Positions 1 through 64,000 of a stretch of 64,000 nt of DNA are shown in pieces. The position numbers were made by a program, and so were the translations under genes. Under the pieces are notes generated by a model that was not told the DNA's origin, did no database searches, and saw only the letters and a list, made by a program, of their open reading frames with translations. This stretch comes from a virus, in the IMG/VR virus record IMGVR_UViG_3300045988_154277. One strand, given 5' to 3'. Numbering within the stretch: position 1 is the stretch's first letter; each line of letters starts with the position of its first letter.

Positions 1-35
1 ATGCATCCGGACAGGCACAGACGATCAGCGAGTGG

Positions 36-1106
36 ATGAGATACGTGAACACAGTCGAACTGAGAACCAGTATCTATAAAACTCGATTTTTAATGGGACC
101 TTTTGTTTACAGTCCATTCGTCAATCTGTGCAAACAGATCTTACACGATGTAGCAGTGACTGATCTATTAAAAAATAGAAGTGATTACGCGAGGTATCAA
201 CAGATCTACTATCTAATCGGATCTTACCGAGGGATGTTCGATCCTGTATACAACGTGAAATCATCTGGAGGTCTCTTCACCAAAGGTTCTACAGCTGATT
301 ACGTTCTCAACGTGATGAGAACTTCTCCGATGCAATCTTTGCCATTGGATCGTTCTTGGGATCACTGGAAAGAACTGCAACCGACCAGGATCATCTACCA
401 CGACTCTATGGAGTTGGTGACCGATCTCGGATCATTCAGTGTTGAGTTCAAGAAACATCCAGCATCTTGGATGACCTGTTCAATCGATCTGATCCTGCTG
501 ATCTTCAAATATCTGAAGTTCGTGGAATACGGTAACAACACCGGAGATGATACCGATATCGAAACCTATCTTCAACGTTACGTAATCCCAGGATGGTTCG
601 ATGATCTTCGCAACATCTGGCTGTTCAACGTATTGAACGCGATGATGTTCGATCAGTTCCGTAGGGAAGACGTTTACACAGATGGGACGATCGCTCCTTT
701 ATCTGGATTACTCGGGGTTGCTCCTGATATCCACAGGATCCAAGCAGAAGCTCAACAGAAAACTCTGTTGTTCGGTGAAGTATTGGTAACCGAATGGTTC
801 GGTCATACCAAGCCATTGCTCGCATGGATCCGTGAGATTCACGATGATCTCAGTGTACCAGATCTCAGGCAATATGCACATCTGAAGTTCCTGGAAGAGT
901 TCCCGTATGTTGCATTCGTCATACGACTGAACAACATGATCCGTTCCAGGGAAAGTGCGAAGGTGAATCGAGAGCTCTATCAGCTCCTGAAACGCTACGA
1001 TGATAGTAATATCTATGCGAACCTTCCTCAACAGCAACTGAGAGACAAAATGTCGTATGAAGTAGGACATCTTCTGTCAGAGACGAAAGAATACCAATCC
1101 TACTAA
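36..1106 (+). CDS. hypothetical protein; reading frame is open back to the window edge, so it may be 5'-truncated
   Basis: 356-aa ORF with phage-like codon usage. No stop in frame between nt 3 and 36. No recognisable motif. Confidence 0.5.
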   Translation: MRYVNTVELRTSIYKTRFLMGPFVYSPFVNLCKQILHDVAVTDLLKNRSDYARYQQIYYLIGSYRGMFDPVYNVKSSGGLFTKGSTADYVLNVMRTSPMQSLPLDRSWDHWKELQPTRIIYHDSMELVTDLGSFSVEFKKHPASWMTCSIDLILLIFKYLKFVEYGNNTGDDTDIETYLQRYVIPGWFDDLRNIWLFNVLNAMMFDQFRREDVYTDGTIAPLSGLLGVAPDIHRIQAEAQQKTLLFGEVLVTEWFGHTKPLLAWIREIHDDLSVPDLRQYAHLKFLEEFPYVAFVIRLNNMIRSRESAKVNRELYQLLKRYDDSNIYANLPQQQLRDKMSYEVGHLLSETKEYQSY

Positions 1107-1247
1107 AAGACAGTATGTGCTCTATGCCATCAGGACAGTGACCCTTGCGAGTCAACCATTCTGACAGTATAAGATATATACGTCAGTAAAAATATATTGA
1201 TACATAGAGAAGGACTCACCATCCTTCTCTATGTATCGTTATACTGG

Positions 1248-2888
1248 TTAGAAGATCCCAACCTTAGGTCCTGTCCCAATCGCGTTCATAAGGGTAGCAA
1301 CATTGCCTCCTCCATTGTTGCTGGCGATAGCACCAGCTAACGCTGCGATATCTTGACCTCCACTGGAGACCTCTCTATTTGATCTCGCAGAGTCGATATC
1401 CGACACCGTATCACCCGTCGGTGCATTGTTCGCCGGAGTATACTCCAAAGACAATACCAGATCGCATTGACAGGTATGAACATACTCACTACCGTGACGA
1501 CCTACTTCTAAGAAAGTGTAGGATACTCCAGAACAGATCCCTGTTTTGGTGGTATACATCGAAGTAGCACTGACGGTAGCACCTTGTTCTCCATTAGCGA
1601 TATTGTCTCCATCGTAATGGTAATAGACACAGTATCCTGGTTTAAATGTGAATGGTACTGCAGCAGCCCATTGTGTTGTTACGATCACTCTACGATAAGC
1701 GTTCAAGAGTTCACGAAGCTTATACGGGTTGCTATCATCGAACCGGAACATCGGTTGATAAGCGTTGTACGTCATACCGAGATCCGACTCACCTGCCGAG
1801 AACATATTGGTATTCAACTCACTGACCGATACCTTACCAAGTCCCGTAGCACCTGACTCACCGATCGTAGTTGCACTGTCAATGATCCTGGTAGCATCTT
1901 GGATGATCATAGAGGTACCGTCCATCTCGGACCCACTATCTTGGAGATCTTGCTCCTTAGCGAATCCGTTCAAGATGATGTGTGTGATCGTATCCGCCAT
2001 CGCGTGGTTGACATCGTTACCAGTGTAGTTGTTGCCCACATAGTAAAGATGTGCTGACTCAGGAGTGGTTGGTTTGGTCTCGCACTCAGGGAACACGTAG
2101 AGTGTTTCGTCAGTATAGTAGAACCCTAATCCCTTGTTGTACACTCCATAGTAGGACTGTAAGAACACCATCGCCTGATCGAACGACAAGCTCGGTGGGA
2201 TGTAGAAGTTTTCATAGGTTTTAGTGTTGTCCGGCTGAACGATCGCTGTCTTCTTGATCTCACACAACTTACAGATCAACAAGATCGCATCTTTTATCGT
2301 CACTTGTCTGGCGATGAAGTTCAACTTGATCTTACGGAGATTGTAAGAGGATTGGTCGATCAACTGGAACTCAGCATCAGGGATCATCGCTCCTTGTTGT
2401 TCTTGAGTCATCTGACCCTGTGTATCCGGAACAAGAGCTTCTTTGGAGTACTTCTTACGAATATCGGATTTATCCTTGAAGATCACAAGATACTCTTTGA
2501 TGATTGTGGGAGCAGTCTCACGTTTCATCGTGTTCTTATTCGTCGGTATGAACTTCAGAGAACATTTCAACCCTCTTGAGTTGTCATACATCTGAAGATA
2601 CTGCGCTGGCATCAATGACACCACCAATGAGATCTCATCGGTATAACTACTGTTGAAGTTCTGTTCGATCGTAAGCTTCACAACTTCAAACGGTGTTACC
2701 TCAAATCGTTCGTTGTTCGTTCTATTATCACCAAAGAACAGACATTCGATCGTGTACGATCCGAAGGTAGGACGTTCTGTGATGTTGATCGAAGAAGTGT
2801 TCGGTGTATCCGGAGACGATGCTTCGTTAAGGATCAGATCCACGTTGGCTTTCATCGTATCCGATACTGGCATGATGTATTGAGACAT
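1248..2888 (-). CDS. hypothetical protein, possibly structural
   Basis: 546-aa ORF, Gly/Thr/Ser-rich C-terminus. First gene of a coupled minus-strand block 1248..6671. Confidence 0.5.
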   Translation of the reverse strand: MSQYIMPVSDTMKANVDLILNEASSPDTPNTSSINITERPTFGSYTIECLFFGDNRTNNERFEVTPFEVVKLTIEQNFNSSYTDEISLVVSLMPAQYLQMYDNSRGLKCSLKFIPTNKNTMKRETAPTIIKEYLVIFKDKSDIRKKYSKEALVPDTQGQMTQEQQGAMIPDAEFQLIDQSSYNLRKIKLNFIARQVTIKDAILLICKLCEIKKTAIVQPDNTKTYENFYIPPSLSFDQAMVFLQSYYGVYNKGLGFYYTDETLYVFPECETKPTTPESAHLYYVGNNYTGNDVNHAMADTITHIILNGFAKEQDLQDSGSEMDGTSMIIQDATRIIDSATTIGESGATGLGKVSVSELNTNMFSAGESDLGMTYNAYQPMFRFDDSNPYKLRELLNAYRRVIVTTQWAAAVPFTFKPGYCVYYHYDGDNIANGEQGATVSATSMYTTKTGICSGVSYTFLEVGRHGSEYVHTCQCDLVLSLEYTPANNAPTGDTVSDIDSARSNREVSSGGQDIAALAGAIASNNGGGNVATLMNAIGTGPKVGIF

Positions 2889-2896
2889 AGGTCACC

Positions 2897-7900: not shown

Positions 7901-8662
7901 TCACCTCCTTGTTCGATGTTGACTGATATGTGTGTTGATGATCGTCTGGTGAAGGAGTAACATGCTACCCAGCATCTTGTTAGCTTGCGACTTCACCTTC
8001 GGATCTTGTTCGATCTTCTTGGTGACGACAGCCAGATAGATACTGGCTACATACCGCACACTGTCCAAGGCGTACTCCAGATACTTCTTACCTACATATC
8101 GTTCATCTTTCGCCGTTGTTGAGATGATCAACTGTAGTTTACGAAGTAGATCCAACGGATCATACAACATGATAGACATACGAGCGTAACGATCGCTGCT
8201 TAATGCAAATGATTGGATCACACTGATCAACGTTGAACTCCGGTTGGGATGAAGTGGATACCACTTCGTCTCCATCAACGCGAACAGTGGCATCATCAAC
8301 ATCAAGTTGATCCCACACTCGTGCTTCTCAATACGTAATATATACGTGAGAATCTGATAGACTAACGGGGGAGCTGGCATCTCCCCCAAGATCAGAGCGT
8401 CCACCAGTTGCCTGGTGGAACGTTCTTCCAAGAACCGCATACGAACACATCCGATCCGGAACAACTGTCCTGCCATGAACAGCTCCTCAGGAGAGGCACC
8501 ACCTCCCTTGTTGTAAGGATCTCGAACGATACAAGATACTTTCGCAAGGTACTTGAAGAATGGTTCTAACTCTACGAGAGGAGGATCATCCTTATTTGTA
8601 GTATCGATCAACCAGGCTTGGAACCTGGCGATCTCAGATGTGTCGAGATCACATCGTTTCAC
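7901..8662 (-). CDS. hypothetical protein, translationally coupled to the topoisomerase gene
   Basis: 253-aa ORF. Its start overlaps the stop of the topoisomerase ORF (ATGA overlap at 8659..8662). Confidence 0.45.
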   Translation of the reverse strand: MKRCDLDTSEIARFQAWLIDTTNKDDPPLVELEPFFKYLAKVSCIVRDPYNKGGGASPEELFMAGQLFRIGCVRMRFLEERSTRQLVDALILGEMPAPPLVYQILTYILRIEKHECGINLMLMMPLFALMETKWYPLHPNRSSTLISVIQSFALSSDRYARMSIMLYDPLDLLRKLQLIISTTAKDERYVGKKYLEYALDSVRYVASIYLAVVTKKIEQDPKVKSQANKMLGSMLLLHQTIINTHISQHRTRR

Positions 8663-11109
8663 AGGACCTCCTGTTCTGGTATTTGGTTCAAGATACTCTT
8701 CACATCACCAAGAACCAACGCTTTACGAGGTGCGGTATCCACGCCCATCATGTCGTAGATACGATTCACATCCCCGATACTCGTGATCGTGGTGAATGTG
8801 CGTGTTGCAGGATCCAAACAGGTGTACTTCAACTGAGGACCACTGCATTCACCGAGACCTTTCAGACGGTGAACAGGATAGTGTTCGTCGAGTTTCTGGA
8901 GGATCCGATAGAGCTGCATGAACGTCATGGGTGCTCGTTCCATCTCCGTTGTTGTTTTGGTTGTCACCAGGAGATCGAACAACTCCCAATGAACCATCTC
9001 CAACTCAGGAAGGATGTAAGAACGGATCTCTTGAACCAAGTTCTGCATCGGAACACTGATCTCGATCCCTGCTACCGACAACAAGAGTGTCTTCGCTCCA
9101 GGATGATACGAACAATCATCCAGTTTCAGGATGTTCTTCACCATCTTGGTATCCAACTTGTACAAACTCAGATAGTCCACACAGTGAACCAACTGTTCCA
9201 GTACCATCGGATCGATCACCAACTTGTTCGCAGAACGGGTGATGATCCCACCGATCCTCTTGGTCAGGTAGATGAAATCCCGATACTGTTCTCCTTTCAG
9301 TTGACACAGATTCTTGGTCATCTGAGAGTAGAGTTCCAGATTGAAGAACTTCTCATAGATCTTGACACGGGCATCGTTCAGGGCTTTCTGGTCTCTCAAG
9401 AAGAGAGCTTTATCCCGACTTTCCATCACGTAGAGCGGAGGATTCGCCATGAACACACGTCCGCTTGCCAGGATCAAAGGATTGATCTTCAACAATGCAG
9501 TGATCACAAGGTCGTTGATGTGATAACCGTCAGGGTCAGCATCTGCCAGGATCCCGATCCTTGCGAACCGCAATCTGCTCAGATCTTGATCTCTCGGTCC
9601 AACCCCCAGGATCTTCACAAGATCTTGGTAGACTTTGTTCGCTCTAAGATCCTCCACATTAGCAGTGTGTGCATTGATCGGTTTGCCTTTCAACTTGAGT
9701 ACTGCTTGGAAGTGTTTGAACCTCTCCTGAACCACGAAGTCTCCTGCGCTGTTACCCTCAGTGATGAACAGTTCCGTGATGGTCGGATCCGTCACACGTG
9801 CAGGCACATAACAACCTTCATTGTTCATGTCGTAAGCAAGGTTCTTCGAGTTGGAACTCAAGTTCATACTCTTATTGCTGAACTGAGCGAACTTCTTCAC
9901 AAGATCATCGTGGATGATGTTGAACATCTGTTCCCACACCCCATCCTGGATCGTATCGAAGTATGCATTCAGCATCTGACCGTAGATCTTCTCGAAATCG
10001 AGATCCTTGAATCCATGCTTCGTCTGACCTTCGTATGTTGCTCCTTTGTAAAACGCTCTGATATATCCGTAGAACGGAATATTGTAGAAGCGTTCGAAGA
10101 ATGTCATGATCTCATCATCGTCCTGATCGAGATATGGAGTCAATCGTTCTCTGATCTTCTCAAAGAAGACACTGAGATGTGAAGACTCTTTATCTTTGAT
10201 CTGTGTATCATTCACAGTGGCGATATAACCATTCTGACGATCACAGTTCTTGACCAGATGAACACTGATGTCACAGGCAAGCAACTTTGGGGATGTCACC
10301 TCTTGTTTCACCTCGAGATTCCAGAGAGGTTGCTCTGTGATATTGAATTTACCACGAACGTAATCTTCAGCTGAGATCATCATAGGTGTTTCGTAGATCA
10401 ATGTACCATGCTGTTTCTGGAAGTAATTCCACATGTCTTCATATGGTTTCTTGAACCAACTGTCAGGAAGAAGTTTATCTACCTGATAGATGTGGAACTT
10501 GGTATTGGTCTTGAATGCTCCGATGTAATCCACCAACTCGAATAGACGTTGTACTCCTTCCGTTGGGAAGAATGTATGAGTGTATCTCAAGATCGTGTCA
10601 TCTGGTTGATGTACTACGATAGTACCAACGGTCTCGCGAATACTATCAATTGGCTTCATCACTTCAGACTTCACCACGTTTCCTCGGTTGAGAGTCAACC
10701 CAGCGAAACCATCCAGTCTCTTTGTGATGGCCACAAACCGTTCTGAGATGGCGTTACTTGAAACAGCACCGACACCGAACTGTCCGATACTGTATTTATA
10801 AGCAGCACTATCTGCTTTGCCAGTTGAAAACGGTATCGTGAAAACATTCCGTAACTTCTCACAAGGGATACCTCTGCCGTGATCCAGTACAGCAATCTGG
10901 TAGGTAGTATCTCCCTTGAACAATATCACGTTGATGTGATAGATCCGATTTGGGTCGATGCTCTCGTCAACCGAGTTATCGATATACTCTTTTACGCACT
11001 GTATGTTAGCGTTTAGATTCGTCTTACCCATGAGCATACCCGCATTTCTACGGGTATGCTCCATGAAGGTGAATTCTCTAATGTCACTCGATGTGTAACT
11101 GTCCGTCAT
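8659..11109 (-). CDS. type II DNA topoisomerase ATPase/TOPRIM subunit (GyrB-like), translated from an internal start
   Basis: GHKL ATPase signature (EYIDNSVDE ... VLDHGRGIP), TOPRIM motif (TEGNSAGD) and the GyrB C-terminal motif (HRLKGLGE). Internal ATG at 11109 (MTDSYTSSDIREF) is preceded by GGAGGA with a 7-nt spacer. Confidence 0.8.
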   Translation of the reverse strand: MTDSYTSSDIREFTFMEHTRRNAGMLMGKTNLNANIQCVKEYIDNSVDESIDPNRIYHINVILFKGDTTYQIAVLDHGRGIPCEKLRNVFTIPFSTGKADSAAYKYSIGQFGVGAVSSNAISERFVAITKRLDGFAGLTLNRGNVVKSEVMKPIDSIRETVGTIVVHQPDDTILRYTHTFFPTEGVQRLFELVDYIGAFKTNTKFHIYQVDKLLPDSWFKKPYEDMWNYFQKQHGTLIYETPMMISAEDYVRGKFNITEQPLWNLEVKQEVTSPKLLACDISVHLVKNCDRQNGYIATVNDTQIKDKESSHLSVFFEKIRERLTPYLDQDDDEIMTFFERFYNIPFYGYIRAFYKGATYEGQTKHGFKDLDFEKIYGQMLNAYFDTIQDGVWEQMFNIIHDDLVKKFAQFSNKSMNLSSNSKNLAYDMNNEGCYVPARVTDPTITELFITEGNSAGDFVVQERFKHFQAVLKLKGKPINAHTANVEDLRANKVYQDLVKILGVGPRDQDLSRLRFARIGILADADPDGYHINDLVITALLKINPLILASGRVFMANPPLYVMESRDKALFLRDQKALNDARVKIYEKFFNLELYSQMTKNLCQLKGEQYRDFIYLTKRIGGIITRSANKLVIDPMVLEQLVHCVDYLSLYKLDTKMVKNILKLDDCSYHPGAKTLLLSVAGIEISVPMQNLVQEIRSYILPELEMVHWELFDLLVTTKTTTEMERAPMTFMQLYRILQKLDEHYPVHRLKGLGECSGPQLKYTCLDPATRTFTTITSIGDVNRIYDMMGVDTAPRKALVLGDVKSILNQIPEQEVL

Positions 11110-12264
11110 TTGTGATTCCTCCATAGTCGTACATGATAGCGATTGTACGTCGTTTTTAACTCGGTCAATATCTGGTAAATTCTCTATACCAAACATAACC
11201 ATAAGCTCATCTGTGGTGTACTTGTGTGTTGCGATTTTTGCACGTAGATCTTGTAGTTCTTCCTTGGTAAGAGGAGTTCTATTGTTTCTATCTGCAGCAT
11301 CATGTGCAGCTTTTAATGTCTTTGCACTCTCTCCCTTTCGGTACGGTACTTCATCTGTAGTGATGCATCGATAAATCATAGCTTCCGATTTATGCATCTT
11401 AGCGCTTAGTGTATTATACGTCCATCCGAGTTTATACATATCTCTTATGTAATAAACCTCGTCTTTGGAAAGAACATCACGTATTTTAACAGTCTTCCTA
11501 GTGCCCCGGACGTTCCTTACAGGATCACCCGGATCTAACGGATAAGTGATCCCATCCAATGCATTCGAAATGGTGTGTCGATCTACATTAAAGTACTCTG
11601 CTAGTTTCCAAATCTTCCACTTCTCCTTCCCATACAGTCGACGGATCTCTTTTACTTGATCACGATTTAACTTGCTATGATTTGAATTATAGTGTTTATC
11701 ACGATAACGATCAATATCAATAGCTTTATCAGATGTTGTCCGATAGTACGTCTCATTTACAGCAGTTGATATCAACGAACCCTGTACATTGAATTCTTCT
11801 GCAAGATCTTTAATGTGTTCTCCGGACAACACACGAATTTTAAGTTCAGTAACTTGATCGTTTGTTAACTTCGCCTGTGGGTGGGCTTCACCAGACAGCA
11901 TCAGACCCATACGGACAGCGTGATGTTTGTTCTCACTAGATGATACCCATTCCAGATTGGACACATCGTTGTTTTGAGGATTTCCATCAATGTGATTTAC
12001 TTCTCTAAGATTGGCAGGATTTGGAAGAAAAGTCCATGCAACCAAGCGATGTGGGCTTGTTAGGTGACGTGACCCATCTCGTTTCACAAACACACATTTC
12101 AAACGATTATGTTTGTCTGTAAAGTATTTGAGATCCGGTATAACAAACCCTCGTTTTTTAACATACTCAGGAGAATTAGCACCTGGTTTAATACGAACAT
12201 GACCGGTTGTACTAGCTTCATAAATTCCTTCATACCCTTTTACATCTTTCCAGTATTCATTCAT
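8659..12264 (-). CDS. continuous ORF in which an HNH homing endonuclease is fused in frame to the topoisomerase subunit
   Basis: No stop codon between the HNH module and the topoisomerase. Likely start is the ATG at 12264 (MNEYWKDVKGYEGIYEAS), with GGAG 9 nt upstream. The ORF-track GTG start at 12321 overlaps the promoter-like motif. Confidence 0.6.
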   Translation of the reverse strand: MNEYWKDVKGYEGIYEASTTGHVRIKPGANSPEYVKKRGFVIPDLKYFTDKHNRLKCVFVKRDGSRHLTSPHRLVAWTFLPNPANLREVNHIDGNPQNNDVSNLEWVSSSENKHHAVRMGLMLSGEAHPQAKLTNDQVTELKIRVLSGEHIKDLAEEFNVQGSLISTAVNETYYRTTSDKAIDIDRYRDKHYNSNHSKLNRDQVKEIRRLYGKEKWKIWKLAEYFNVDRHTISNALDGITYPLDPGDPVRNVRGTRKTVKIRDVLSKDEVYYIRDMYKLGWTYNTLSAKMHKSEAMIYRCITTDEVPYRKGESAKTLKAAHDAADRNNRTPLTKEELQDLRAKIATHKYTTDELMVMFGIENLPDIDRVKNDVQSLSCTTMEESQMTDSYTSSDIREFTFMEHTRRNAGMLMGKTNLNANIQCVKEYIDNSVDESIDPNRIYHINVILFKGDTTYQIAVLDHGRGIPCEKLRNVFTIPFSTGKADSAAYKYSIGQFGVGAVSSNAISERFVAITKRLDGFAGLTLNRGNVVKSEVMKPIDSIRETVGTIVVHQPDDTILRYTHTFFPTEGVQRLFELVDYIGAFKTNTKFHIYQVDKLLPDSWFKKPYEDMWNYFQKQHGTLIYETPMMISAEDYVRGKFNITEQPLWNLEVKQEVTSPKLLACDISVHLVKNCDRQNGYIATVNDTQIKDKESSHLSVFFEKIRERLTPYLDQDDDEIMTFFERFYNIPFYGYIRAFYKGATYEGQTKHGFKDLDFEKIYGQMLNAYFDTIQDGVWEQMFNIIHDDLVKKFAQFSNKSMNLSSNSKNLAYDMNNEGCYVPARVTDPTITELFITEGNSAGDFVVQERFKHFQAVLKLKGKPINAHTANVEDLRANKVYQDLVKILGVGPRDQDLSRLRFARIGILADADPDGYHINDLVITALLKINPLILASGRVFMANPPLYVMESRDKALFLRDQKALNDARVKIYEKFFNLELYSQMTKNLCQLKGEQYRDFIYLTKRIGGIITRSANKLVIDPMVLEQLVHCVDYLSLYKLDTKMVKNILKLDDCSYHPGAKTLLLSVAGIEISVPMQNLVQEIRSYILPELEMVHWELFDLLVTTKTTTEMERAPMTFMQLYRILQKLDEHYPVHRLKGLGECSGPQLKYTCLDPATRTFTTITSIGDVNRIYDMMGVDTAPRKALVLGDVKSILNQIPEQEVL
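11110..12264 (-). mobile_element. HNH homing endonuclease module (NUMOD4 + HNH_3 + repeated HTH motifs)
   Basis: GYEGIYEASTTGHV (NUMOD4-like), NHIDGNPQNNDVSNLEWVSSSENKHHA (HNH), then repeated NUMOD1/IENR1-like helix-turn-helix segments. Confidence 0.7.
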
Positions 12265-12294
12265 AATAACAACTCCAGTTAATAGTGTTTTCTT

Positions 12295-12314
12295 AGAGTT
12301 ATATATACGTGAAG
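12295..12314 (-). promoter_or_regulatory. early-promoter-like motif (minus strand reads cacgTATATATAActct), 30-50 nt upstream of the HNH-topoisomerase start
   Basis: Member of the conserved motif family agtWatatataYNtSaaa, found only in this orientation. Confidence 0.5.
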
Positions 12315-12334
12315 TTACCACGAAACAAAAAGAG

Positions 12335-13440: not shown

Positions 13441-13475
13441 AGAGTAATATATACTTCAAATAGGCTTCATTTACA
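13441..13475 (-). promoter_or_regulatory. early-promoter-like motif (minus strand reads TATATATTAC), 45 nt upstream of the HNH endonuclease start
   Basis: agagtaatatatacttcaaataggcttcatttaca. The extended flank is shared with the copies at 48066 and 31298. Confidence 0.5.
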
Positions 13476-23714: not shown

Positions 23715-23750
23715 AGTTTACTCCTTCGTGCATAATGTTAAGTTTGACGT

Positions 23751-23780: not shown

Positions 23781-23789
23781 ACACAGTAA

Positions 23790-40639: not shown

Positions 40640-40642
40640 CCT

Positions 40643-48065: not shown

Positions 48066-48099
48066 AGTTATATATACTTCAAAAGACCTTCATTTACAC
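48066..48099 (-). promoter_or_regulatory. early-promoter-like motif about 70-100 nt upstream of ORF 47177..47995
   Basis: agttatatatacttcaaaagaccttcatttacac. Confidence 0.5.
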
Positions 48100-50295: not shown

Positions 50296-50326
50296 AATCC
50301 TATTCCTTTGTATAAGGTGAAATGTT

Positions 50327-52239: not shown

Positions 52240-53192
52240 TCCTCCATATAGCTGCTGATCTTGAGATCGAGATCTCGGATCATATCGTTATAAGTGTTGA
52301 TGATCTTCACAGCTTTCCGGTATTCATCGCTGTTGGGATCAATACCATTCAGCTGAAGTTTCAGAAGGTCAGTGTGGTTCTGCAACCACTCTTTCTCCTG
52401 GACCATCTTCTGGTATTTCAGGTTGCGCATCAGAACACCCCACTCTCCGAAATAACGGAAGATAGAGGCGAGGATCGTAGCGCCACCCTCGATGAGACCG
52501 AACTTGTTCTTGACGGTCTTGATCATATCGTTCACTCGATCCTGATCATCGAGCAACGTTGTATCGCTTGACTTGCGAAGAGTATCGATCTCGGTGATCA
52601 ATTGATTCGCACTGGATGGCAGAGAACCAACCTTAAGCAGTTCAACAACGCCGAGTTTATACTTGTTGATGAACTCATACCGATATGGTTTCGGTTGGTT
52701 GAGTTCATGAACACCTTCATTGACGATGATCTCGTACAACACTCCATCGAACAGATAAACAGCGTAGTTGCTGAAGATCTGTGCCTGTTCCACGATACGG
52801 AACACCGCCAGCTGGCTGACTTTCGCATTGTAGATCGTAGTGAACTTCTCGTTGAAGAGAACATTCACATTACGTTCGATCATCTGAAGAACCGTTGTAA
52901 GGTTCTGAGCAAGCATAACGAACGGATCGAATCCAACCTTCTGAGAGCGCAACAGCTTGTTGATCTCTACACAAGTGTTGCAGAAGAGGTTGCCTGGAAC
53001 GGCGAATGTATTGATCCTCTGAGAGAACTGTTCCTTATCCGATCCAGTAATGTTGTTAAGTGTATTGATGAAGTTGGTAAGCTGTCCCTCAACCAGTTTA
53101 AGATTCTCTTTGAAGTCTTCTTTCGAGATCTTCCGCATCTTCTTGGATTCGACAGCAACCACTTCACCTACGTCTTTCAATATATCTCGCAT
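52236..53192 (-). CDS. hypothetical protein
   Basis: 318 aa. Stop and start overlap with its neighbours. Confidence 0.45.
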   Translation of the reverse strand: MRDILKDVGEVVAVESKKMRKISKEDFKENLKLVEGQLTNFINTLNNITGSDKEQFSQRINTFAVPGNLFCNTCVEINKLLRSQKVGFDPFVMLAQNLTTVLQMIERNVNVLFNEKFTTIYNAKVSQLAVFRIVEQAQIFSNYAVYLFDGVLYEIIVNEGVHELNQPKPYRYEFINKYKLGVVELLKVGSLPSSANQLITEIDTLRKSSDTTLLDDQDRVNDMIKTVKNKFGLIEGGATILASIFRYFGEWGVLMRNLKYQKMVQEKEWLQNHTDLLKLQLNGIDPNSDEYRKAVKIINTYNDMIRDLDLKISSYMED

Positions 53193-53205
53193 AGTGGCTA
53201 CTCCT

Positions 53206-54285
53206 TTAGAATCTGGGACTCATACCCTGGGAGAAAGTCTGCATGATCTCTGCGAGATTGAAGCTGTCCTTCCCCTTGGCTCCCACTTTATTCAACATCT
53301 GGAACGTGTAAGTTCCCTTCACGTCGATGCCGTTGAAATACATATCGACGGTTCCACCCATCACGTCGACAACAACCACGAAGATCGCCATCGTCTTCAA
53401 CATGAAACTCTGACGATAACCTTTGTCTGCAAAGTTCGCACCGACCTCTTTGCAAGCTTCGGTAAAGGTTGGTTTGTCCATGATGATCATGGAGTTCGCC
53501 AAGTTTCCGGATGTGGGTTTCATACCGATCAGGCGAAGTGCCCAGTTGAAAAGCTTATTGTGCTGGTTGGTAAGGATCGCAGCCAGAACACCGGACTTGT
53601 CTTCCTTCAGGAGTTTTTCCTGCTTCTTGAGCAGGTCTCTGGAGAGCATGAAGTCGTTCCAGAAACTGATCTCCTTCGCCTCCACCTGTTTCCAACGAAC
53701 GGACATCGGCGGATGGAAGTTGATGTTCATGAAACCTTTGCAGATGTTGGAAGACAAGATGATCGGGATCAGCTGGACATACACGTATACTTTAAACGTG
53801 TTCACCTTGCCGCCCCCTTCAAGCGTAAGATCGACCTCCAAAAGACGTCCGGTAACCAGTCGCTGGCTGTCCTTCTCCAGGTCCACCACTTGTGACTCCA
53901 TAGAGACGTTCATCTCTTTGATCGTGGAGTTCAGAGTCTCCTGACCGAAGTCATCCGCGATGATCGTGACGGTATCTTGAAGGGTTTCTGTGGCGATGAT
54001 ACCGTACAGTTCTTTCACCGTCTTTCCGCCAACCACTACATTTTGCATATTCAAAGCGGTCATGATGTAGCTAGCATAAAGCTGGTTCAGGGTACCGAGC
54101 AACGGTAACGCGATGTCGTCTTGAGCGACACTTTCCTGCAGATACACTCGACTGATGATGTTCGCAGGTTTGTTCATTTGTGTCAGCGATACTGTCTGCA
54201 TCTCGTTGACCTTATTCACACCTTGTGCGACGATCTTCAAGATTTCAGACAGTCCTGCTGGCAGCAGATCTGGGATAGAAGCCAT
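53206..54285 (-). CDS. hypothetical protein
   Basis: Start refined to MASIPDLL at 54285 (GTGAGGA RBS). The ORF-track version extends to 54351. Confidence 0.45.
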   Translation of the reverse strand: MASIPDLLPAGLSEILKIVAQGVNKVNEMQTVSLTQMNKPANIISRVYLQESVAQDDIALPLLGTLNQLYASYIMTALNMQNVVVGGKTVKELYGIIATETLQDTVTIIADDFGQETLNSTIKEMNVSMESQVVDLEKDSQRLVTGRLLEVDLTLEGGGKVNTFKVYVYVQLIPIILSSNICKGFMNINFHPPMSVRWKQVEAKEISFWNDFMLSRDLLKKQEKLLKEDKSGVLAAILTNQHNKLFNWALRLIGMKPTSGNLANSMIIMDKPTFTEACKEVGANFADKGYRQSFMLKTMAIFVVVVDVMGGTVDMYFNGIDVKGTYTFQMLNKVGAKGKDSFNLAEIMQTFSQGMSPRF

Positions 54286-54344
54286 ATGAAATATCCTCAC
54301 TTTGCGGGATAAAATACCCCTTGATTTTGTGGATTCAATGCAGC

Positions 54345-54353
54345 ATAGCATGT
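54345..54353 (-). promoter_or_regulatory. ATGCTATG motif on the minus strand, 60 nt upstream of the refined start at 54285
   Basis: The minus strand reads gacATGCTATGctg. Confidence 0.35.
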
Positions 54354-54417: not shown

Positions 54418-55920
54418 ATGCCTTCCAATGAACGAGAAAGAACTCCGAAGGATATCCTCGGATACTTCGATGAGTTTTTACCATCTGCGTACAGGGGTAA
54501 GAATCTTCAATCGATCCCTGAGGATGTTCTTCAAACTGCATACAATCAGATGATGCGATCCACGGTCGATCCAGATGCTCTTACCAAAGAGATGAAAGAT
54601 CGAGTCGCCAACCTCGCATTCGTCACGTCAGGTGCAGGTCCTTACTTCAACCAGATCCAAACCTATTTAACTTGTTTGGATCGATTCAAAGGGAACCTCC
54701 TCCCTATCAACACGATGGAATCCGGTCTGACATTCATCACCAGACCGAGGCTCTGTCTGCAGTCATCTAATATTCGTAACAATCGTAGAATGGCAGCGTT
54801 GGATACTTTGAACCCAACATCGATGGCGTTCATGATCCGATGCTTGTTGGATACGAACTTTGGAGAAGTGAATAATCAGCGGTACAAAAGCATCGTCAAC
54901 AGTTCTCCGTTGATTGACTCCTATAACCCATTCTTAGTTCCACTCTGCAACTCTCTGTTGTCCATCAGCGGGTTCCCGGACATGATGATTCAGACTCAGA
55001 CGACCGATGGTGGGTATCAAGCAGAAGCACAGACCTTCGCTGTTGGAGGTGATGATTTCAACCGAGCAACCTACAACTTGAATCTAGAGTTCAAGGATAT
55101 CCAGCACGGTCCGATCTCAGCGATCATCTACTACTGGTTGGAATACATCCGTTGTGTGACAAGAGGGATCCTCTTGGCATATGCAGATGACATCGATGAA
55201 CAGAGACTCAATTACACAGTGTCCATCTATCGGTTCGCTCTGGATCCAACGAAAACTTATATCGTGGATTGGTGTAAGTGTACCGGATGCTTCCCGACGA
55301 ACTTGAACACCGGTGCAATCATGCAGGTAAATGACGGGGAAGAGTTCGTATCAGCAGCTACCAGGATCAATGTGGGATTCGCATGCAATAAGGTAGAGTA
55401 CCGAGATCATGCGATCTTCATGGATTTCAACACACTGATCCAGAGATACTTCCCAGATATCAACAAAGACGTCAATGGGAAGTATGCGGAACCGGATGAA
55501 CAGGGTGTCAACCATGCAACCTTAAGATACCCCAACCTTCCGAAAGAACCTTATGCCAACTTCCGAGGTATTCCATATATCACCTCTGATATGCACGGAC
55601 CCCGATTGGAGTTCCGTCGTTCTCCTACTCCGGTGTTCCCATACTCCAGAGGAACGAATGATCTTGTTGATCAGTTGCTTATGATCGACATGATGCGAAA
55701 AGCCCAAGAGTTTGGAAAACAGAACTACACTCGTTATGCAGAGATGTATACACCTGAGTATATGAAACAAGCGAATAGTCAGAACCTCGGTGCGAACATT
55801 AAAGCATTCTTCCGGAGAGTTATGAACGATAAAACGCATGATTCGAAGGGGTTCGATGCGATCCAGTATCGAGATGATACCCCTCCTAGCTCAGCGCAAA
55901 ATACACAAGGAGTTAACTGA
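54418..55920 (+). CDS. putative virion structural protein (500 aa)
   Basis: TAAGGAGA RBS. Its stop overlaps the start of the 1442-aa gene (TGATG). No specific family recognised. Confidence 0.45.
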   Translation: MPSNERERTPKDILGYFDEFLPSAYRGKNLQSIPEDVLQTAYNQMMRSTVDPDALTKEMKDRVANLAFVTSGAGPYFNQIQTYLTCLDRFKGNLLPINTMESGLTFITRPRLCLQSSNIRNNRRMAALDTLNPTSMAFMIRCLLDTNFGEVNNQRYKSIVNSSPLIDSYNPFLVPLCNSLLSISGFPDMMIQTQTTDGGYQAEAQTFAVGGDDFNRATYNLNLEFKDIQHGPISAIIYYWLEYIRCVTRGILLAYADDIDEQRLNYTVSIYRFALDPTKTYIVDWCKCTGCFPTNLNTGAIMQVNDGEEFVSAATRINVGFACNKVEYRDHAIFMDFNTLIQRYFPDINKDVNGKYAEPDEQGVNHATLRYPNLPKEPYANFRGIPYITSDMHGPRLEFRRSPTPVFPYSRGTNDLVDQLLMIDMMRKAQEFGKQNYTRYAEMYTPEYMKQANSQNLGANIKAFFRRVMNDKTHDSKGFDAIQYRDDTPPSSAQNTQGVN

Positions 55921-58900
55921 TGCCTAACACAGATAATGCAACGGAGATGACGTTGCAGCTCTATACGGTTCCACAGAGGATCCAGGCGAGAGCTCTGGAT
56001 CTTCTCCAAGAGAAAGTCTTGGATGGTCGTGAAATGGTCGATGGGAACAACCCAACCACCTTCTTGCTTGAGTTCTCTGCAACTGTTGCTGCAGGGATCA
56101 CCAACGAAGTATCCCAGTCGTTGTCGTCACTGTATCCAAGCCGTGCTCAGACGACAGCGGATCTGTATCGTCATATGGCAGATTACGATTATGTCAATCT
56201 GTTCAGCACACCTTCTAACACGATGATCGAGATCGTATTGAACCGAAACTATCTGATCCAGAATGCTGTTCGTTATGGAAACTCAGATTACAAGAAGATC
56301 GTGATCCCAGAGTACAGTACATTCAAGATCGGAGAGTATACGTTCGGGATCTACTACCCAATCGAGATCCAGATCAAAGAATCCAGAGAGAACGGTGTAC
56401 TCGATTACGACAACTGTCTGATCACGACCAAATGGGATCTCACCAATGAGAATCCCCTGATGACGATGGAGACGAACATCCTGGAGAACAGAACATATAT
56501 GCGGGATGGGATCACGATGCTCTGCATCAGTATCCCGATCCACCAGTTCGTCTCCACGATCCACCAAGAGGACACGGTTGCAAGCACTGGGTTCTCGAAA
56601 CGATATACGTATACCGATCAGTTCTATGCTGCACGGATCTTCCACTACTTCGGTGGTTCCTGGGTAGAACTGGCTCAGACATTGTCCGATGTCGTATACG
56701 ATCCGATGTTGGCAACGGCGAAACTCACTGTACTGACAGATCTGAGTGTACTGCAAGTTGACATCCCACAGGTGTATTTCACCAAGAACATGATCGGATC
56801 GAAGATCCGCATTTACGTCTACACTTCCAAAGGTGCACTGGATGTGGATATCACGGAATACAGCGCAGAGCAGTTCAGTGCATCGTTCCTGTTGAACGAT
56901 GAGGTGGTGGATGATACCTACAGCGCGATGTTGAAGAGGATCCCCTATTGTCAGGTCCTTCCTCTCTCCAAGAGGATCGCCAGCGGATCTGATGGATTGA
57001 CCTTTGAAGAGTTGAGAGAACGAGTGGTGCACGATTCGACTTACAGTCTGCTGATCACGCCTGCTGATATCGAGAACTACTTCAAAGACCAAGGATTCAT
57101 CGCCAAACGATATCTCGACAACCTTACAGATCGTATCTATCTGGCTCAGAAAGTGATGACAGACGGAGCAGGTGTCACGATCAGTGCTGGTGATCAGACC
57201 GCTGTATTCCAAAGTGATGTTTTCCATCGTGAGACAGATCCAGATACCAACGAAGTGATCATATCGAACTACCGTACGATCAAATACATCAACGATCGTT
57301 CGTTCATGATCTTACCTTCTACGGTGTATCAGTACGATCAGGGTACCAACACGGTTGTTCCGATGAACAACACTTGGATGGATGCGTTGGATGATATGTC
57401 TGCTGCTCAGAAAGTATCTCTTCTGAACAGTGGAGTTTACATGTACTCTCCATTCCACTTAAAACTCACAACGACAAACTCTACTCCGGTTGCGTGTTAT
57501 TACGATCTTCTACAACCGAAGATCACAAGTACAACATTTCTCAGTGAGAACCAGAATATCACCTCTCAGATCTCGATCTACAACTCCAGTATCACCCATA
57601 TGGAGAACGGAACAGGTGGATATCGGTTCTACATCAGTCTGTACAAGACGTCGGATATGCAGAAAGTTCCAGTACTGGGTGAAGATGGTCTGACTCCGAA
57701 CATCACCGTTGTTCTTAAGACCGAAACAGCGGAAGGTCAGGAACTCTACATGTACGGACAGTATGCGGGTCAGTACAGCGATCACGATGTATTCGTGTTC
57801 GATATCAAAACCTCATACAAGATCAATGAGGATAACGAAATCGATGTGTCCTCGTTCAACAGTATGTCCTCTGGTCAGAAGACCACGATGATGATCCCTC
57901 TGACCAACACTTACAAGATCATGTTCTTCGTGAATCGGTCGTTCATCTCATCGATCAGTGCAATGACAGGTGTGGATGTATCGCAGTTCCCACCGGATCT
58001 TGGAGCAGGTGGTGTGGTATGGTTGGCAACGCAGCAGTTCACATTGGAACTTGGTTCCGCACTGAACTCGTTGTTCACCAACGTAGCGGTTCATGTGGAA
58101 GCTCAGCAATACCAGACCTATCCAACTACTGTGTACGCCACGTATACCAACCCTGTATATGCGAGGTATACCGAAGAGGATGTGAAAAACGGTGTTGTCT
58201 CTGAGTACTACGGACCGATTACAGAAGAACTTGTTGGTGTGTACAAGTATCCGTTGGAACTGATCCACGACGCGGATGAAGTGATCCTGAGTCCTGTTTA
58301 CAATGAGACGATCCCACCAGCTTGTAAGGTGAAGATCCCAAATGCAGAAGATGAGTCGATCACCACGTATCCTCTGTATCTGCAACCGATTTACACAGCA
58401 AGCTCGTCTTCTACGAACCTTTGGTTGCCTCCTCCAGAAGGGATGGATGCGTACGATGTGAACAACAAGATGCGGTTGGAAGTGGTGGATGTGTTGCAGT
58501 TCGCACTTACGGATGTGTCGAAAGCATCCGGTGTGGTGAAAGAACCATCCGAACTTCAGATCCAGTTCAGAGATGAGACGATCACCAACGAGGACGGATC
58601 TACCACCGTTGTTCGTACCTCATACGACCCTCATGTTGGTCAGATGTTCATGTTCGTAACAGATGCGGAGAATGACCTCTCCGATCCTGAGAACACCTTC
58701 AGTCTTGGATCCGGAAGCACGGAACCATCCCTCACGGGAGCTCTGTATCGTCGTGATGCGAGCGCTACGGATTACGATTACACTGGATTCTCCTACCGGT
58801 TGGCAGGGGATACGGAGTATCATAGTCTTACAGCTGAAGTTCTGGAACAGATCTACAACGATCTCGCTACCATGACAGAAGATGCGGTCAGTCAGAAATA

Positions 58901-60248
58901 CAGCATGACGAAGTCTGTGCTGAAGAGATTGAACGGATCGATCCGTTCTCCATGGATCAAAGTGATCCAAGCGGAGTCGATACAACAGTTGTCCAATTAC
59001 TGGAACAACCGTCGGATCTTGAACACCACAGCGGATTATCTCTACGCTATCCAGAAACAGTTGAGTCGTGTTCCAGAGTATGCGAGTTACACAGCGTTGT
59101 TGGATGCGGAAAAAAGCATCGTAACAGGATCGATCGTGTGGGTCACAGATGTGAGCGATTACGGTGGAGAACTGCCTGTTCGGTTGATCGGTGATCTGAC
59201 CGTTACTGGGACACAGACACAAGGTGCTCTGCTTCGTAAGCTTGATACCGGTTGGGAGTGGATCATCACAGGTCCTTACAAGAAATCCTGTATCGCTTCT
59301 GTGAACTCCACCAATACCTTCAGTGGGTTCGCTTACCTGATCAGTGAACAGGATGCGTCTGGAACATACATCCCACGGTACATCAATCTTTTGTCTTATA
59401 CGGACAAAGGGAAGTTAAGCATCGATTTCTCCACGTATACGTGGGCATTGATCGATCACTGGGCGTGGGAAATCACCACTCCTTGGGTATCCATCAGCAC
59501 AGGTACCAACTCCGGTGTTGATCTGGATATCGATACGACCACTTCAGCGAAGATCGCTCAGTATGGTGGTGATGTTCAGTTGGATGAGAACGGGAATCTT
59601 GTGGGTGTGATCACCGATGCGAATGGTAACCCGGTCGAAGAGGACGATGAGTATGCAGATACTCGTAAGATCGCTTACCGAGTTCGTACTTTGCAAGCAG
59701 ATTACAAACTCACCTACTCCACAGAAGCTCAACATCTCACCTATCGGAACGACATCCTCGAACTGCTTCGGTCGTATTTCAATACGATCAATACAGCGAG
59801 AGCATCGTTACTGGAGAGAACAGAGTTCTACTACTCTCCGATCCGTACGATGGGTTATGCGGAGTTCAAAGGAACGAACGCAGAAGTGGAATCGAGATCG
59901 TTGGATATCACGATGGGGTTCCGGCTGTACGTGCAAGACTACGTTGCGAACTCTTCGGATAACCGAGAAGCGATCATGAACAACGTTCTCAGTATCATCG
60001 ACAGCCATATGGCAACGGGTTCTATCTCGACGACTCAGTTGGCAGAGGAGATCCGCGCATCTCTCTCTGATACAGTACAGTTCGTAGAGAACCTTGGGAT
60101 CAACGGAGATCCTGAGTTGAGAGTACTGGTCCTGAATGAAAGTATGGAGGAGTGTATCCCCCATCTGAAACAGGAACTTTATCTCGATGAAGGGAACCAG
60201 ATCAAAGTCAATCGTGGTGTTACGTTGGAATACGTAGCGATCAACTAA
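55920..60248 (+). CDS. very large putative virion structural protein (1442 aa)
   Basis: Long beta-rich sequence with Ser/Thr/Asn-rich stretches, translationally coupled to 54418..55920. Followed by a bidirectional hairpin at 60260..60299. Confidence 0.45.
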   Translation: MPNTDNATEMTLQLYTVPQRIQARALDLLQEKVLDGREMVDGNNPTTFLLEFSATVAAGITNEVSQSLSSLYPSRAQTTADLYRHMADYDYVNLFSTPSNTMIEIVLNRNYLIQNAVRYGNSDYKKIVIPEYSTFKIGEYTFGIYYPIEIQIKESRENGVLDYDNCLITTKWDLTNENPLMTMETNILENRTYMRDGITMLCISIPIHQFVSTIHQEDTVASTGFSKRYTYTDQFYAARIFHYFGGSWVELAQTLSDVVYDPMLATAKLTVLTDLSVLQVDIPQVYFTKNMIGSKIRIYVYTSKGALDVDITEYSAEQFSASFLLNDEVVDDTYSAMLKRIPYCQVLPLSKRIASGSDGLTFEELRERVVHDSTYSLLITPADIENYFKDQGFIAKRYLDNLTDRIYLAQKVMTDGAGVTISAGDQTAVFQSDVFHRETDPDTNEVIISNYRTIKYINDRSFMILPSTVYQYDQGTNTVVPMNNTWMDALDDMSAAQKVSLLNSGVYMYSPFHLKLTTTNSTPVACYYDLLQPKITSTTFLSENQNITSQISIYNSSITHMENGTGGYRFYISLYKTSDMQKVPVLGEDGLTPNITVVLKTETAEGQELYMYGQYAGQYSDHDVFVFDIKTSYKINEDNEIDVSSFNSMSSGQKTTMMIPLTNTYKIMFFVNRSFISSISAMTGVDVSQFPPDLGAGGVVWLATQQFTLELGSALNSLFTNVAVHVEAQQYQTYPTTVYATYTNPVYARYTEEDVKNGVVSEYYGPITEELVGVYKYPLELIHDADEVILSPVYNETIPPACKVKIPNAEDESITTYPLYLQPIYTASSSSTNLWLPPPEGMDAYDVNNKMRLEVVDVLQFALTDVSKASGVVKEPSELQIQFRDETITNEDGSTTVVRTSYDPHVGQMFMFVTDAENDLSDPENTFSLGSGSTEPSLTGALYRRDASATDYDYTGFSYRLAGDTEYHSLTAEVLEQIYNDLATMTEDAVSQKYSMTKSVLKRLNGSIRSPWIKVIQAESIQQLSNYWNNRRILNTTADYLYAIQKQLSRVPEYASYTALLDAEKSIVTGSIVWVTDVSDYGGELPVRLIGDLTVTGTQTQGALLRKLDTGWEWIITGPYKKSCIASVNSTNTFSGFAYLISEQDASGTYIPRYINLLSYTDKGKLSIDFSTYTWALIDHWAWEITTPWVSISTGTNSGVDLDIDTTTSAKIAQYGGDVQLDENGNLVGVITDANGNPVEEDDEYADTRKIAYRVRTLQADYKLTYSTEAQHLTYRNDILELLRSYFNTINTARASLLERTEFYYSPIRTMGYAEFKGTNAEVESRSLDITMGFRLYVQDYVANSSDNREAIMNNVLSIIDSHMATGSISTTQLAEEIRASLSDTVQFVENLGINGDPELRVLVLNESMEECIPHLKQELYLDEGNQIKVNRGVTLEYVAIN

Positions 60249-61704: not shown

Positions 61705-62202
61705 GGTTTGATTCCTTTTGTTAAGGGTTGTTGGGTTGAGCTAAGATATGGAGAAGAACGAAGGTTCGTATCGTTGTCACTAACACAACGATCTTCTCCT
61801 TCGAATCTTCGACTTGTTTACTACACGAATGACTTTTGTACAAAACTAGACTATGTAAACACACTATGAGAGAGGTTAGTGTCTCATATGTGTTAAATGA
61901 ACGTTACCGACCGACTCTTGTCGGTATGTACAACAATACGAATTAGTTCGTCGGATATTCGGTACCACAACGAACTTCGTACTGTATTACTGCAACTGCA
62001 CGCTGCATCGCGTCAAGAACATCTTGTCCTTCACGCAGGAACTGGTTTAACAGTTCGTAATAACGTTGATGAAACGTCTTCACGTAGTCACCTCCTTTCT
62101 TGATGTTAGTGTACAGAGTGTAGATGCGTCAACATCTACACTCTGTACACGGTTATCAGTTTGACACATCTCTAATTAGACATGTCTTCGGTATTATCAA
62201 TA

Positions 62203-62240
62203 AAGTAATATATATTCGAAATATTTTGAACTACACTTTT
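62203..62240 (-). promoter_or_regulatory. early-promoter-like motif (duplicate of the 32862 module)
   Basis: aagtaatatatattcgaaatattttgaactacactttt. Downstream (leftward) lie the hairpin 62108..62149 and a small minus-strand ORF with an AGGAGGTG RBS (approximately 61946..62086). Confidence 0.45.
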
Positions 62241-62277
62241 CAAGACAGTCGATGGTATGCAAGATAGGAGGTTAACG

Positions 62278-62619: not shown

Positions 62620-62624
62620 CTATT

Positions 62625-63551
62625 TTAATCAAGTGATAGTTCGATCCCGAACGCTTTCCGGAACAAGATCTTCAAGTCCTCACTTTGATGGATCCCTTTC
62701 GTAGATCCAGCATAGATGTTGGAGAATAGATGTTTGGTCCCAAGGAGAAGATCGATCCTTGTGATCGGAACTTTGTCAGCAGAACACAGCTTAGTGAACT
62801 CTTTCAATGTAACAGGATGTTCTGCATACAAGAGTTGTAGTTTCTGTCGGAACAGTAGAACTTTAACTGTGTTGTTGACAGCTCTCGCTGCGAACCGATT
62901 GAACGTCAGTTCACTGGAGAGTTGTTTCAAGAACGCTTCCAACGAGTAGTCCTTATGAAGAAGTTCATCGTCTATCTTCCAAGCATATTGTGACTTCCTG
63001 CCTTTTCGTTCTACCTTCTTCTCCAGTTCTTTAATTGGCGCTTGAGAAGCTCTTTTCTCTTGCGCATCTTTCTCAGTTGTCTTTGGTTCCTGTTTCTTCG
63101 TCTTAGATTGTTCAGCCGATTGATCTCTTTTTGATTGAACGGTTGACTTGAGTTGTTGGAACACTCTTCGATCGTCATCCATGTCTTGGAGGATTCCAGG
63201 ATGGAACAGGGCATTCCAAGCATTAGTAAGATAAGGGAACGAAGCCCCATCCAACATCTTGTTAAAATCATCTTCAGATAGATCACAATATCTCCTCAAT
63301 TCCTCTTGTACCTGGAACTTCCCTTCCAGATAAGCGACGATCTCTCGTCGTGTTTTGGTTGTATAGTCTTTAATATTGACGATGATAACTCGTCTTAAGT
63401 ACTCGATGAACTTCTCTCTGGAAGTTTCTCTTGGGATGCCCTTGATAACGAGAGTGAATGTTTTCTTATTCCACCTTCTCTGTTGTTCTGCGAGCTCTTC
63501 CCAATCCTTCCAATCTCCTTCGTCGGGTACATATACGTCCTCTTCTGGCAT
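62625..63551 (-). CDS. hypothetical protein
   Basis: 308 aa with a central K/E-rich linker. Confidence 0.45.
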   Translation of the reverse strand: MPEEDVYVPDEGDWKDWEELAEQQRRWNKKTFTLVIKGIPRETSREKFIEYLRRVIIVNIKDYTTKTRREIVAYLEGKFQVQEELRRYCDLSEDDFNKMLDGASFPYLTNAWNALFHPGILQDMDDDRRVFQQLKSTVQSKRDQSAEQSKTKKQEPKTTEKDAQEKRASQAPIKELEKKVERKGRKSQYAWKIDDELLHKDYSLEAFLKQLSSELTFNRFAARAVNNTVKVLLFRQKLQLLYAEHPVTLKEFTKLCSADKVPITRIDLLLGTKHLFSNIYAGSTKGIHQSEDLKILFRKAFGIELSLD

Positions 63552-63604
63552 AAAGATCCCTCCTATTGTTTTGTTCGCAAACTATGGTTGTTCTCAGTAA
63601 GAAG

Positions 63605-63644
63605 ATCTATGAGTGGAAGGCGTCCAACCCTTCCACTCATAGAT
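63605..63644. other. perfect 16-bp stem-loop at the edge of a 450-bp non-coding tail
   Basis: atctatgagtggaagg / ccttccactcatagat. Confidence 0.4.
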
Positions 63645-64000
63645 CGTTGCATAGGAGCAGGATAAGAGGTCGCTCAAGATCCTTCAGAGAACATCGGATC
63701 AAGAGCTACGGACCGACCGCAGCCCAGTAATAGAACTCGAGCGGACTTCAGGCGTGTCCTCAGATCACTGACGAAAGATAGGTGGTTCCTCCTAGACTGC
63801 GTCGCGAACTACACGCAGACCAACTTCACTTCCGGCGCAAAGCGAGGTCGTTCCTATGTGGGTAATCATCGAAGAGTCTGGGAGTTTGACCCTATCGATG
63901 GAAGGTTGTCAGGTCTCAACGAGTTCTTTTCGGCACGATGGTTTACCAGACCACCGAATACAGGTTGTGCCCAAGTGCGTCCTTGCCTAAGGTAGCGTCA

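Follow-up and report, generated by a model that had tools for sequence, protein, structure and literature searches.

The tetranucleotide GATC is the site of the gammaproteobacterial Dam-SeqA-MutH system and of the Dam enzymes of phages T4, T1 and P1. Among phage genomes, the subcluster B3 mycobacteriophages show a genome-wide excess of GATC and GGATCC of about four-fold, the function of which is unexplained (Siranosian et al. 2015, PMC4841201). The DNA analysed here is a 64,000-bp stretch of a viral genome, IMG/VR record IMGVR_UViG_3300045988_154277, referred to below as the window, which represents 64 kb of a genome of roughly 200 kb. It contains 938 GATC sites, i.e., one per 68 bp, where base composition predicts 245 (3.82-fold), and GATC ranks first among the 256 tetramers by the observed-to-expected ratio (O/E) relative to base composition. 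The strong over-representation reported in a preliminary description of this DNA is real, with an overall value of 3.8-fold and rank 1/256, and the 5–10-fold enrichment and the spacing of one site per 30–50 bp given there hold only for hand-picked dense stretches. The feature is real, numerically striking and mostly derivative: the density of GATC is probably a by-product of the coding habits of this phage lineage, combined with a lack of purging, rather than a property maintained for the sake of the site itself.

Coding DNA as a whole carries one GATC per 65 bp, about a four-fold enrichment. The site is present in all 56 genes that were called with confidence using an iterated codon model, and 53 of the 56 exceed the expectation from their own protein sequence. 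Split by codon phase (the dot marks the codon boundary), the coding sites read xxG·ATC in 561 cases, GAT·Cxx in 285 and xGA·TCx in 44, which bears out the earlier proposal that the enrichment is achieved through codon choice on both strands. The largest gene of the window, encoding a virion structural protein of 1442 aa (55920–60248, plus strand), is a typical case of coding enrichment, with 86 GATC against about 41–51 from codon usage. Intergenic DNA had been described as much less enriched, and this is correct: non-coding DNA contains 20 GATC in 4,180 bp and, without the last 449 bp, which are probably coding, 14 in 3,731 bp, giving an O/E of 1.04. The non-coding interval 32721–33044, for example, has two sites in 324 bp. 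The GATC excess is confined to coding DNA.

Across the window (1–64000), the 938 sites are placed at random. Bins of 2 kb hold 17–46 sites each, the variance-to-mean ratio in 500-bp bins is 1.29, the maxima per 60–500 bp match random placement, and the longest GATC-free gap (515 bp) is as expected by chance. The hand-counted stretches behind the earlier figures do contain 11 GATC in 420 bp at 40621–41040 (plus strand, inside the chaperonin-like gene 40643–42529), eight at 57001–57300 and five at 421–540, and these stretches are denser than average. No extended consensus around GATC, no clusters and no regular or periodic spacing were found across the window. The positions flanking the site are flat; AGATCT, CGATCG, GGATCC and TGATCA are all raised 3.2–3.8-fold (GGATCC 3.64-fold), and the frequency of GATCGATC equals the prediction from independent placement. 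Likewise, the HIP1-type palindrome GCGATCGC is not over-represented, with one occurrence in the window against 0.6 expected.

The significance of the GATC excess depends on the null model chosen. Nested nulls were run on the 56 confident genes, in which 890 GATC were observed. Base composition predicts 220 sites, and the same proteins written with unbiased synonymous codons 266–298. When the real codon usage is retained by synonymous shuffling, the expectation rises to 533–553 (z about 24, ratio 1.6, rank 1); when the junction dinucleotides, i.e., the third base and the following first base, are also preserved, it reaches 733–762 (z about 12, ratio 1.2, rank 1), and with junction trinucleotides preserved 844–868 (z 3.5–5.4, ratio 1.03–1.06). 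For the whole window, the O/E of GATC is 1.87 under a first-order and 1.05 under a second-order Markov model, and its Karlin tau is 0.92 (rank 227 of 256), which lies within the band of 0.78–1.23 treated as normal in the restriction-avoidance literature (Rusinov et al. 2015, PMC4687349). Since the second-order ratio is 1.05 and tau is 0.92, GATC is not over-represented as a word. As a word it is normally represented, and what is unusual is its components. The selection on the site itself suggested in the preliminary description is therefore not borne out by these two values once GAT and ATC are accounted for. The same description had named two outcomes that would speak against its reading, namely a ratio near 1 after correction for codon usage and dinucleotides, and equal enrichment of other tetramers built in the same way. 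The first is borne out by half: the ratio stays at 1.2–1.9, with GATC the top outlier, and falls to 1.05 and 0.92 after the half-sites are taken into account. As for the second, such tetramers are boosted nearly as much, the residual beyond dinucleotides being 1.87 for GATC, 1.79 for CAAC/GTTG, 1.77 for GAAG/CTTC and 1.73 for GAAC/GTTC.

The components are general habits of codon usage and of codon junctions. ATC makes up 81% of Ile codons, TTC 83% of Phe, AAC 64% of Asn and GAT 75% of Asp codons; GGT and GGA together account for 75% of Gly codons, CGT is the top Arg codon, and GGC, GCC, CGC and CCC each take only 8–12% of their own codon families. The half-sites GAT (2.05-fold) and ATC (1.92-fold) are the top trimers, and GAT that does not precede C is still enriched 1.44-fold. 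Among dinucleotides, GA and TC have an O/E of about 1.4, GC of 0.62 and TA of 0.68, and at codon junctions GA stands at 1.41 and TC at 1.43. Tetramers of the class G/C-(A/T)(A/T)-G/C are raised 1.72-fold, as against 0.47 for all-A/T and 0.35 for all-G/C tetramers. Where a synonymous choice exists, codons ending in G precede ATC 2.06 times as often as expected, ATG 1.90 times, AAN 1.4–1.6 times and ACN or AGN about 1.0 times. T-ending codons are preferred before C in all NNY families, and the junctions A·A, G·C and C·C are avoided. Moreover, AAAA occurs at about 0.35 of the codon-shuffle expectation. GATC is the intersection of several such general rules, and at the synonymous level the preference for GATG, a word that Dam does not recognise, comes close to that for GATC. 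No tRNA genes able to account for the codon bias were found in the window.

The junction excess of GATC is uncorrelated with the GC content of genes, with their GC content at third codon positions (GC3) or with their ATC usage, and it includes the low-GC gene of an HNH endonuclease. Its presence in every gene, irrespective of GC content and codon bias, would suit a DNA-level mutational or host signature, in which context-dependent mutation, or convergence on a host rich in GATC and poor in the GC dinucleotide, shaped the DNA and the codons merely reflect it. The roughly strand-symmetric junction biases (GA 1.41, TC 1.43), the GC dinucleotide at 0.62 and the convergence of two gut sublineages on a pattern from which their sisters differ are also consistent with such a signature. 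Non-coding DNA argues the other way, having neither a GA/TC excess (GA 1.06) nor a GATC excess (1.04), over a small sample of 3.7 kb that is full of regulatory signals. On balance, we consider a DNA-level signature improbable.

On the by-product reading, three habits combine, and GATC is found where they overlap. Codon usage avoids all-A/T and all-G/C codons, favouring ATC, TTC, GAT and, for Gly, GGT or GGA. The junctions favour G before codons starting with A (above all AT and AA) and T before C. In consequence, every G/C-(A/T)(A/T)-G/C tetramer is boosted, with runs of A/T and runs of G/C depleted. In the lineage of the window, GATC escapes the hold-down that acts on other 4-bp palindromes and on GATC itself in most relatives, and it would for this reason rise to the top. 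The habits themselves could originate from selection at the level of translation or mRNA, from adaptation to the host, or from avoidance of sequences similar to the AT-rich promoters of the phage itself.

The hold-down is apparent in the other palindromes of the window. GGCC is nearly absent: its 10 sites compare with about 170 predicted by base composition and with 55–74 in codon shuffles. A Karlin tau of 0.78 or less, the value taken as the limit of avoidance, was obtained for GGCC (0.43), CTAG (0.71), AATT (0.74) and TTAA (0.78), and GCGC is likewise depleted. GATC, with its tau of 0.92, lies above this limit; it alone among the 4-bp palindromes escapes depletion.

The comparison with relatives covered 85 related loci, gathered with the alignment of the DNA polymerase (33443–35545) as anchor. 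One relative, the 197.7-kb contig IMGVR_UViG_3300045988_142450, is 93–97% identical. Within the window's own lineage (75–99% polymerase identity), GATC reaches 3.75–4.0 times the base-composition expectation, and the locus L084 (86% polymerase identity) has an equal coding density, 14.7 GATC per kb. A second sublineage (L005, L004 and L012) shows 2.9–3.55-fold, the sisters of both GATC-rich sublineages 1.5–2.3-fold, and most other members of the family about 1–2-fold. At the lower end, four loci (L043, L045, L059 and L082) contain no GATC at all in 7.6–22 kb, and two more (L036 and L047) have it at 0.1-fold. In all six, the Karlin ratio of GATC is at or below 0.78; the second-order Markov O/E is 0–0.1 in the avoiding relatives and 1.0–1.1 in the GATC-rich lineages. 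Selection against GATC thus shows at the word level in the avoiding relatives. The GATC-rich trait appears to have arisen twice, a tentative conclusion given that the polymerases were placed by simple neighbour joining.

In the GATC-rich lineages, the ratio of G·ATC to G·ATG is 1.04–1.4 and is accompanied by strong ATC and GAT usage and a strong preference for G·A junctions. In most of the remaining relatives the ratio is 0.5–0.9, indicating mild avoidance; L009, whose ATC usage is the same, is one of them. Given the codon and junction habits of the relatives together with these ratios and the flank-interaction odds ratios described below, the rise from about 1.5-fold to 3.8-fold is therefore partly due to stronger general habits and partly to release from avoidance.

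The relatives also bear on the artefactual or synthetic origin that the preliminary description had asked to exclude. Such an origin could lie in a synthetic construct, an assembly error or contamination with GATC-rich adapters or linkers, and no evidence in favour of it was found. The same bias is shared by independently assembled relatives at 75–99% polymerase identity in independent datasets, namely an IMG/VR co-assembly of human faecal samples and Logan assemblies of public sequencing runs. The sites lie in frame within long open reading frames (ORFs) that encode recognisable jumbo-phage proteins, and gains and losses of GATC relative to the 97%-identical relative are balanced (16 and 17). 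An artefact or a synthetic origin is excluded as far as the sequence data show, and its probability seems negligible to us.

Several observations weigh against the by-product reading, and most of them would favour positive selection for GATC density. Under such selection, the sites would be methylated or hypermodified by a Dam-type enzyme of the phage or the host, and dense sites would be useful, either as a self mark or shield against defence or in the service of a SeqA-, MutH- or nicking-type activity. In nearly all null layers, including those that preserve codons (z 24 and 12), GATC heads the list of outliers, and a small word-specific excess of 22–46 sites survives the strictest null (z 3.5–5.4). 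The flank-interaction odds ratio of GATC is 1.17, which places the window in the top tenth of the family, as compared with 0.52–0.67 in GC-matched sisters and a family median of 0.89. GATC is the sole undepleted 4-bp palindrome. The trait is kept over 75–99% polymerase identity and apparently recurs in the second sublineage, and its presence in two separate sublineages could mean a shared selective pressure. Relative to the 97%-identical relative, wobble bases diverge by 2.4% inside GATC and by 7.1% outside it. The half-site bias could also be, in part, a footprint of selection on GATC itself.

The conservation of sites was compared among relatives at 97%, 68% and 64% amino-acid identity, where the higher divergences only re-measure the context bias. 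With matched controls at 97% identity, most of the difference is lost and the remainder is small and not significant: ATC diverges by 2.4% after G and by 4.2% after another base, GAT by 3.8% before C and by 4.7% before another base, and xxG by 2.0% before ATC and by 5.6% before other codons starting with A (p = 0.09). G·ATC ranks second among the conserved junction words, which speaks for selection, and G·AAG, C·AAC, G·GAT and G·ATG are similar. Compared with the preferred-codon and junction controls, GATC shows a trend toward better conservation that is not significant, and there is little evidence that purifying selection targets GATC specifically.

Further results argue against a selected density. 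Besides the tau of 0.92 and the second-order O/E of 1.05, the half-sites are enriched outside GATC too, and GATG is favoured almost as much synonymously. Non-coding DNA is unenriched, although a function of density at the DNA level should not stop at gene ends, and there are neither clusters nor regular spacing. A six-frame scan for the methyltransferase motif [DNS]PP[YFWH] gave no match inside a real gene of the window, and Pfam and PHROG scans of the window proteins, which cover 64 kb of roughly 200 kb, revealed no methyltransferase or base-modifying enzyme. Taken together, we regard positive selection for GATC density as possible but doubtful. A stronger version is unlikely, namely that two sublineages of gut jumbo phages each raised GATC on their own to about one per 70 bp, fully methylated or modified as protection or as a self label, while their nuclease-exposed sisters purged it. 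If true, it would make GATC a two-way arms-race motif inside one phage family.

The by-product reading has consequences of its own for the exposure of the phage to nucleases. At one site per 68 bp, enzymes of the MboI, DpnII and Sau3AI type would shred unmethylated phage DNA, and DpnI-type enzymes would do the same to methylated DNA; any Dam, DpnI, DpnII, MboI or MutH activity would heavily affect a genome of such GATC density. A phage with such dense GATC must therefore live where GATC nucleases do not reach its DNA, and we infer that its hosts lack them or that the DNA is methylated or physically shielded, perhaps inside a phage nucleus. The range within one family, from zero sites in 20 kb to a four-fold excess, offers a sensitive read-out of exposure to host defence, and GATC usage is possibly a marker for host assignment and binning. 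The case also shows that a striking raw k-mer excess can vanish under standard lower-order corrections, and that raw O/E is no evidence of selection on a site.

One gene had been singled out in the preliminary description as GC-rich, nearly free of GATC and compositionally foreign. It lies at 48196–50295 (minus strand, GC 55%), and its product is an acidic protein with an internal repeat and a high content of Pro, Glu and Ala. The stretch 48400–49100 indeed contains only four GATC. The whole gene has 19, where its own amino acid and codon content predicts 14–15, and its native codon-usage score per codon is among the three highest in the window; with a native score and a count above its own expectation, both a foreign origin and an escape from the GATC bias were rejected. 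Its low GATC count results from low Ile (3.4%, about half the usual share) and low Asp (5.2%). The internal repeat, of about 73 aa, is located at 48606–48857 (minus strand), with units beginning NEFEGGDVTEHEFKPEEQMDDPAGTLPDESEGEGKG... and NEFQGGDVTEHEFEPEKQMEDPASTLPDDTEGEGKSG... The gene adjoins four genes of 316–381 aa (50327–54351), two of which have a PHROG or Pfam match, and only the one at 50327–51292 matches phiKZ internal-head proteins, weakly.

The plus-strand ORF 48220–50340 (706 aa) is a spurious antisense ORF opposite the gene for the acidic protein. Further very long antisense ORFs are found at 36857–37396, 36077–36853 and 35663–36073, all on the minus strand. Such long stop-free antisense ORFs occur because the codon usage is poor in TTA, CTA and TCA, and they would mislead length-based gene callers.

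The window belongs to a natural, uncultivated, gut-associated, distant phiKZ-like jumbo phage. It encodes a divergent family-B DNA polymerase (33443–35545, minus strand; PF20286, E = 3.6e-105), a split RNA polymerase beta subunit (14954–16606, minus strand; phrog_2962, 4e-97), a tail-tube protein matching PF23971 and proteins with weak matches to the phiKZ internal-head type (phiKZ_IP), as well as an NAD-dependent ligase, an RNase H and a chaperonin-like protein. In tblastn searches against 290–314 jumbo phage records, the window proteins matched phiKZ-like phages at about 25% identity; a megablast search of GenBank phages with 8 kb of the window produced no nucleotide-level match, and exact-protein look-ups of the two window-end genes returned no record. 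Of four large uncharacterised window proteins, none matched the solved chimallin structures or annotated chimallin homologues, and PhuZ was not seen in the window; both genes may lie outside it. As regards habitat, another contig of the same IMG dataset was co-assembled from human faecal samples, according to a preprint. A 54%-identical polymerase occurs in a sheep-colon 'Clostridia' metagenome-assembled genome, which is the only clue to the host and a weak one.

The 13-nt motif GTWATATATRYKT is present in nine copies in the window, against 0.7 expected, all in a single orientation: 8335–8347, 12298–12310, 13444–13456, 20146–20158, 31299–31311, 32865–32877, 35592–35604, 48067–48079 and 62205–62217. 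Most copies are situated just upstream of minus-strand genes, those of the ligase, the polymerase and the HNH endonuclease among them, and two sit in a common conserved block of 77 nt (32833–32909 and 62173–62249). On the minus strand the motif reads ...TATATATTAC, which resembles the phiKZ early-promoter consensus, TATATTAC.

An ORF of 1220 aa similar to GyrB/topoisomerase (8659–12321, minus strand) carries an N-terminal module of NUMOD4 and HNH (aa 22–379). The HNH module is paralogous (27% identity) to the HNH endonuclease gene directly upstream (12373–13398, minus strand), and the promoter-like motif at 12298 falls within the annotated start of the ORF. The ORF may represent an in-frame homing-endonuclease fusion or two genes read as one. 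Four tandem paralogous genes on the minus strand (25439–28500) encode proteins of 232–264 aa with 24–33% identity and no family match. The DNA around these genes varies between strains: the 97%-identical relative (L001) has nothing that corresponds to 23542–26846, and L084 has a much shorter version of the region. Two distant paralogues, at 20209–21558 and 45844–47187 (both minus strand; 22% identity over 429 aa, E = 6e-19), have a GC of 0.39–0.40, the least native codon usage of the window and no family match; they may be more recent arrivals.

As a phage, the window shares with the phiKZ-like (Chimalliviridae-type) jumbo phages the PF20286 polymerase, the split RNA polymerase beta subunit, the internal-head, tail-tube and virion proteins and the TATATATTAC promoter-like motif, and it differs from them in its gut-metagenome origin and in its proteins, whose identity to those of any cultured phage of the group is only about 25%. 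In its codon usage, it resembles the rule of intermediate codon-anticodon strength of Grosjean and Fiers: codons that open with two A/T bases take C in third position, and codons that open with two G/C bases take T or A there. That rule concerns in-frame codons only, whereas the balancing in the window also crosses codon junctions, as seen in AAAA at 0.35-fold and in the preference for G·AW, and includes weakly biased genes. With Dam systems it has the site in common, but no Dam-type gene was found in the window, nor does GATC form functional clusters like those of oriC or P1 pac.

Restriction-site avoidance in phage genomes was reportedly also treated by Rusinov and colleagues in 2018. The window conforms to such avoidance for GGCC, CTAG, AATT, TTAA and GCGC, which behave as avoided sites, whereas GATC is opposite in raw counts and neutral by tau, 0.92 being inside the 0.78–1.23 band (Rusinov et al. 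2015, PMC4687349). A close parallel is found in the B3 mycobacteriophages. Both cases show a GATC excess of about four-fold that is spread over the genome, specific to a lineage and of unexplained function, and GGATCC is raised in both; the host phylum, the GC content and the phage family differ. In the B3 case, the hexamer GGATCC was proposed to act as a higher-order signal, whereas the window shows an equal rise of all four NGATCN palindromes and no bias at the flanking positions. The B3 study did not include a decomposition at the codon level, which is now available for the window. The window is thus another example of a GATC excess of the B3 kind, in a very different phage and habitat.

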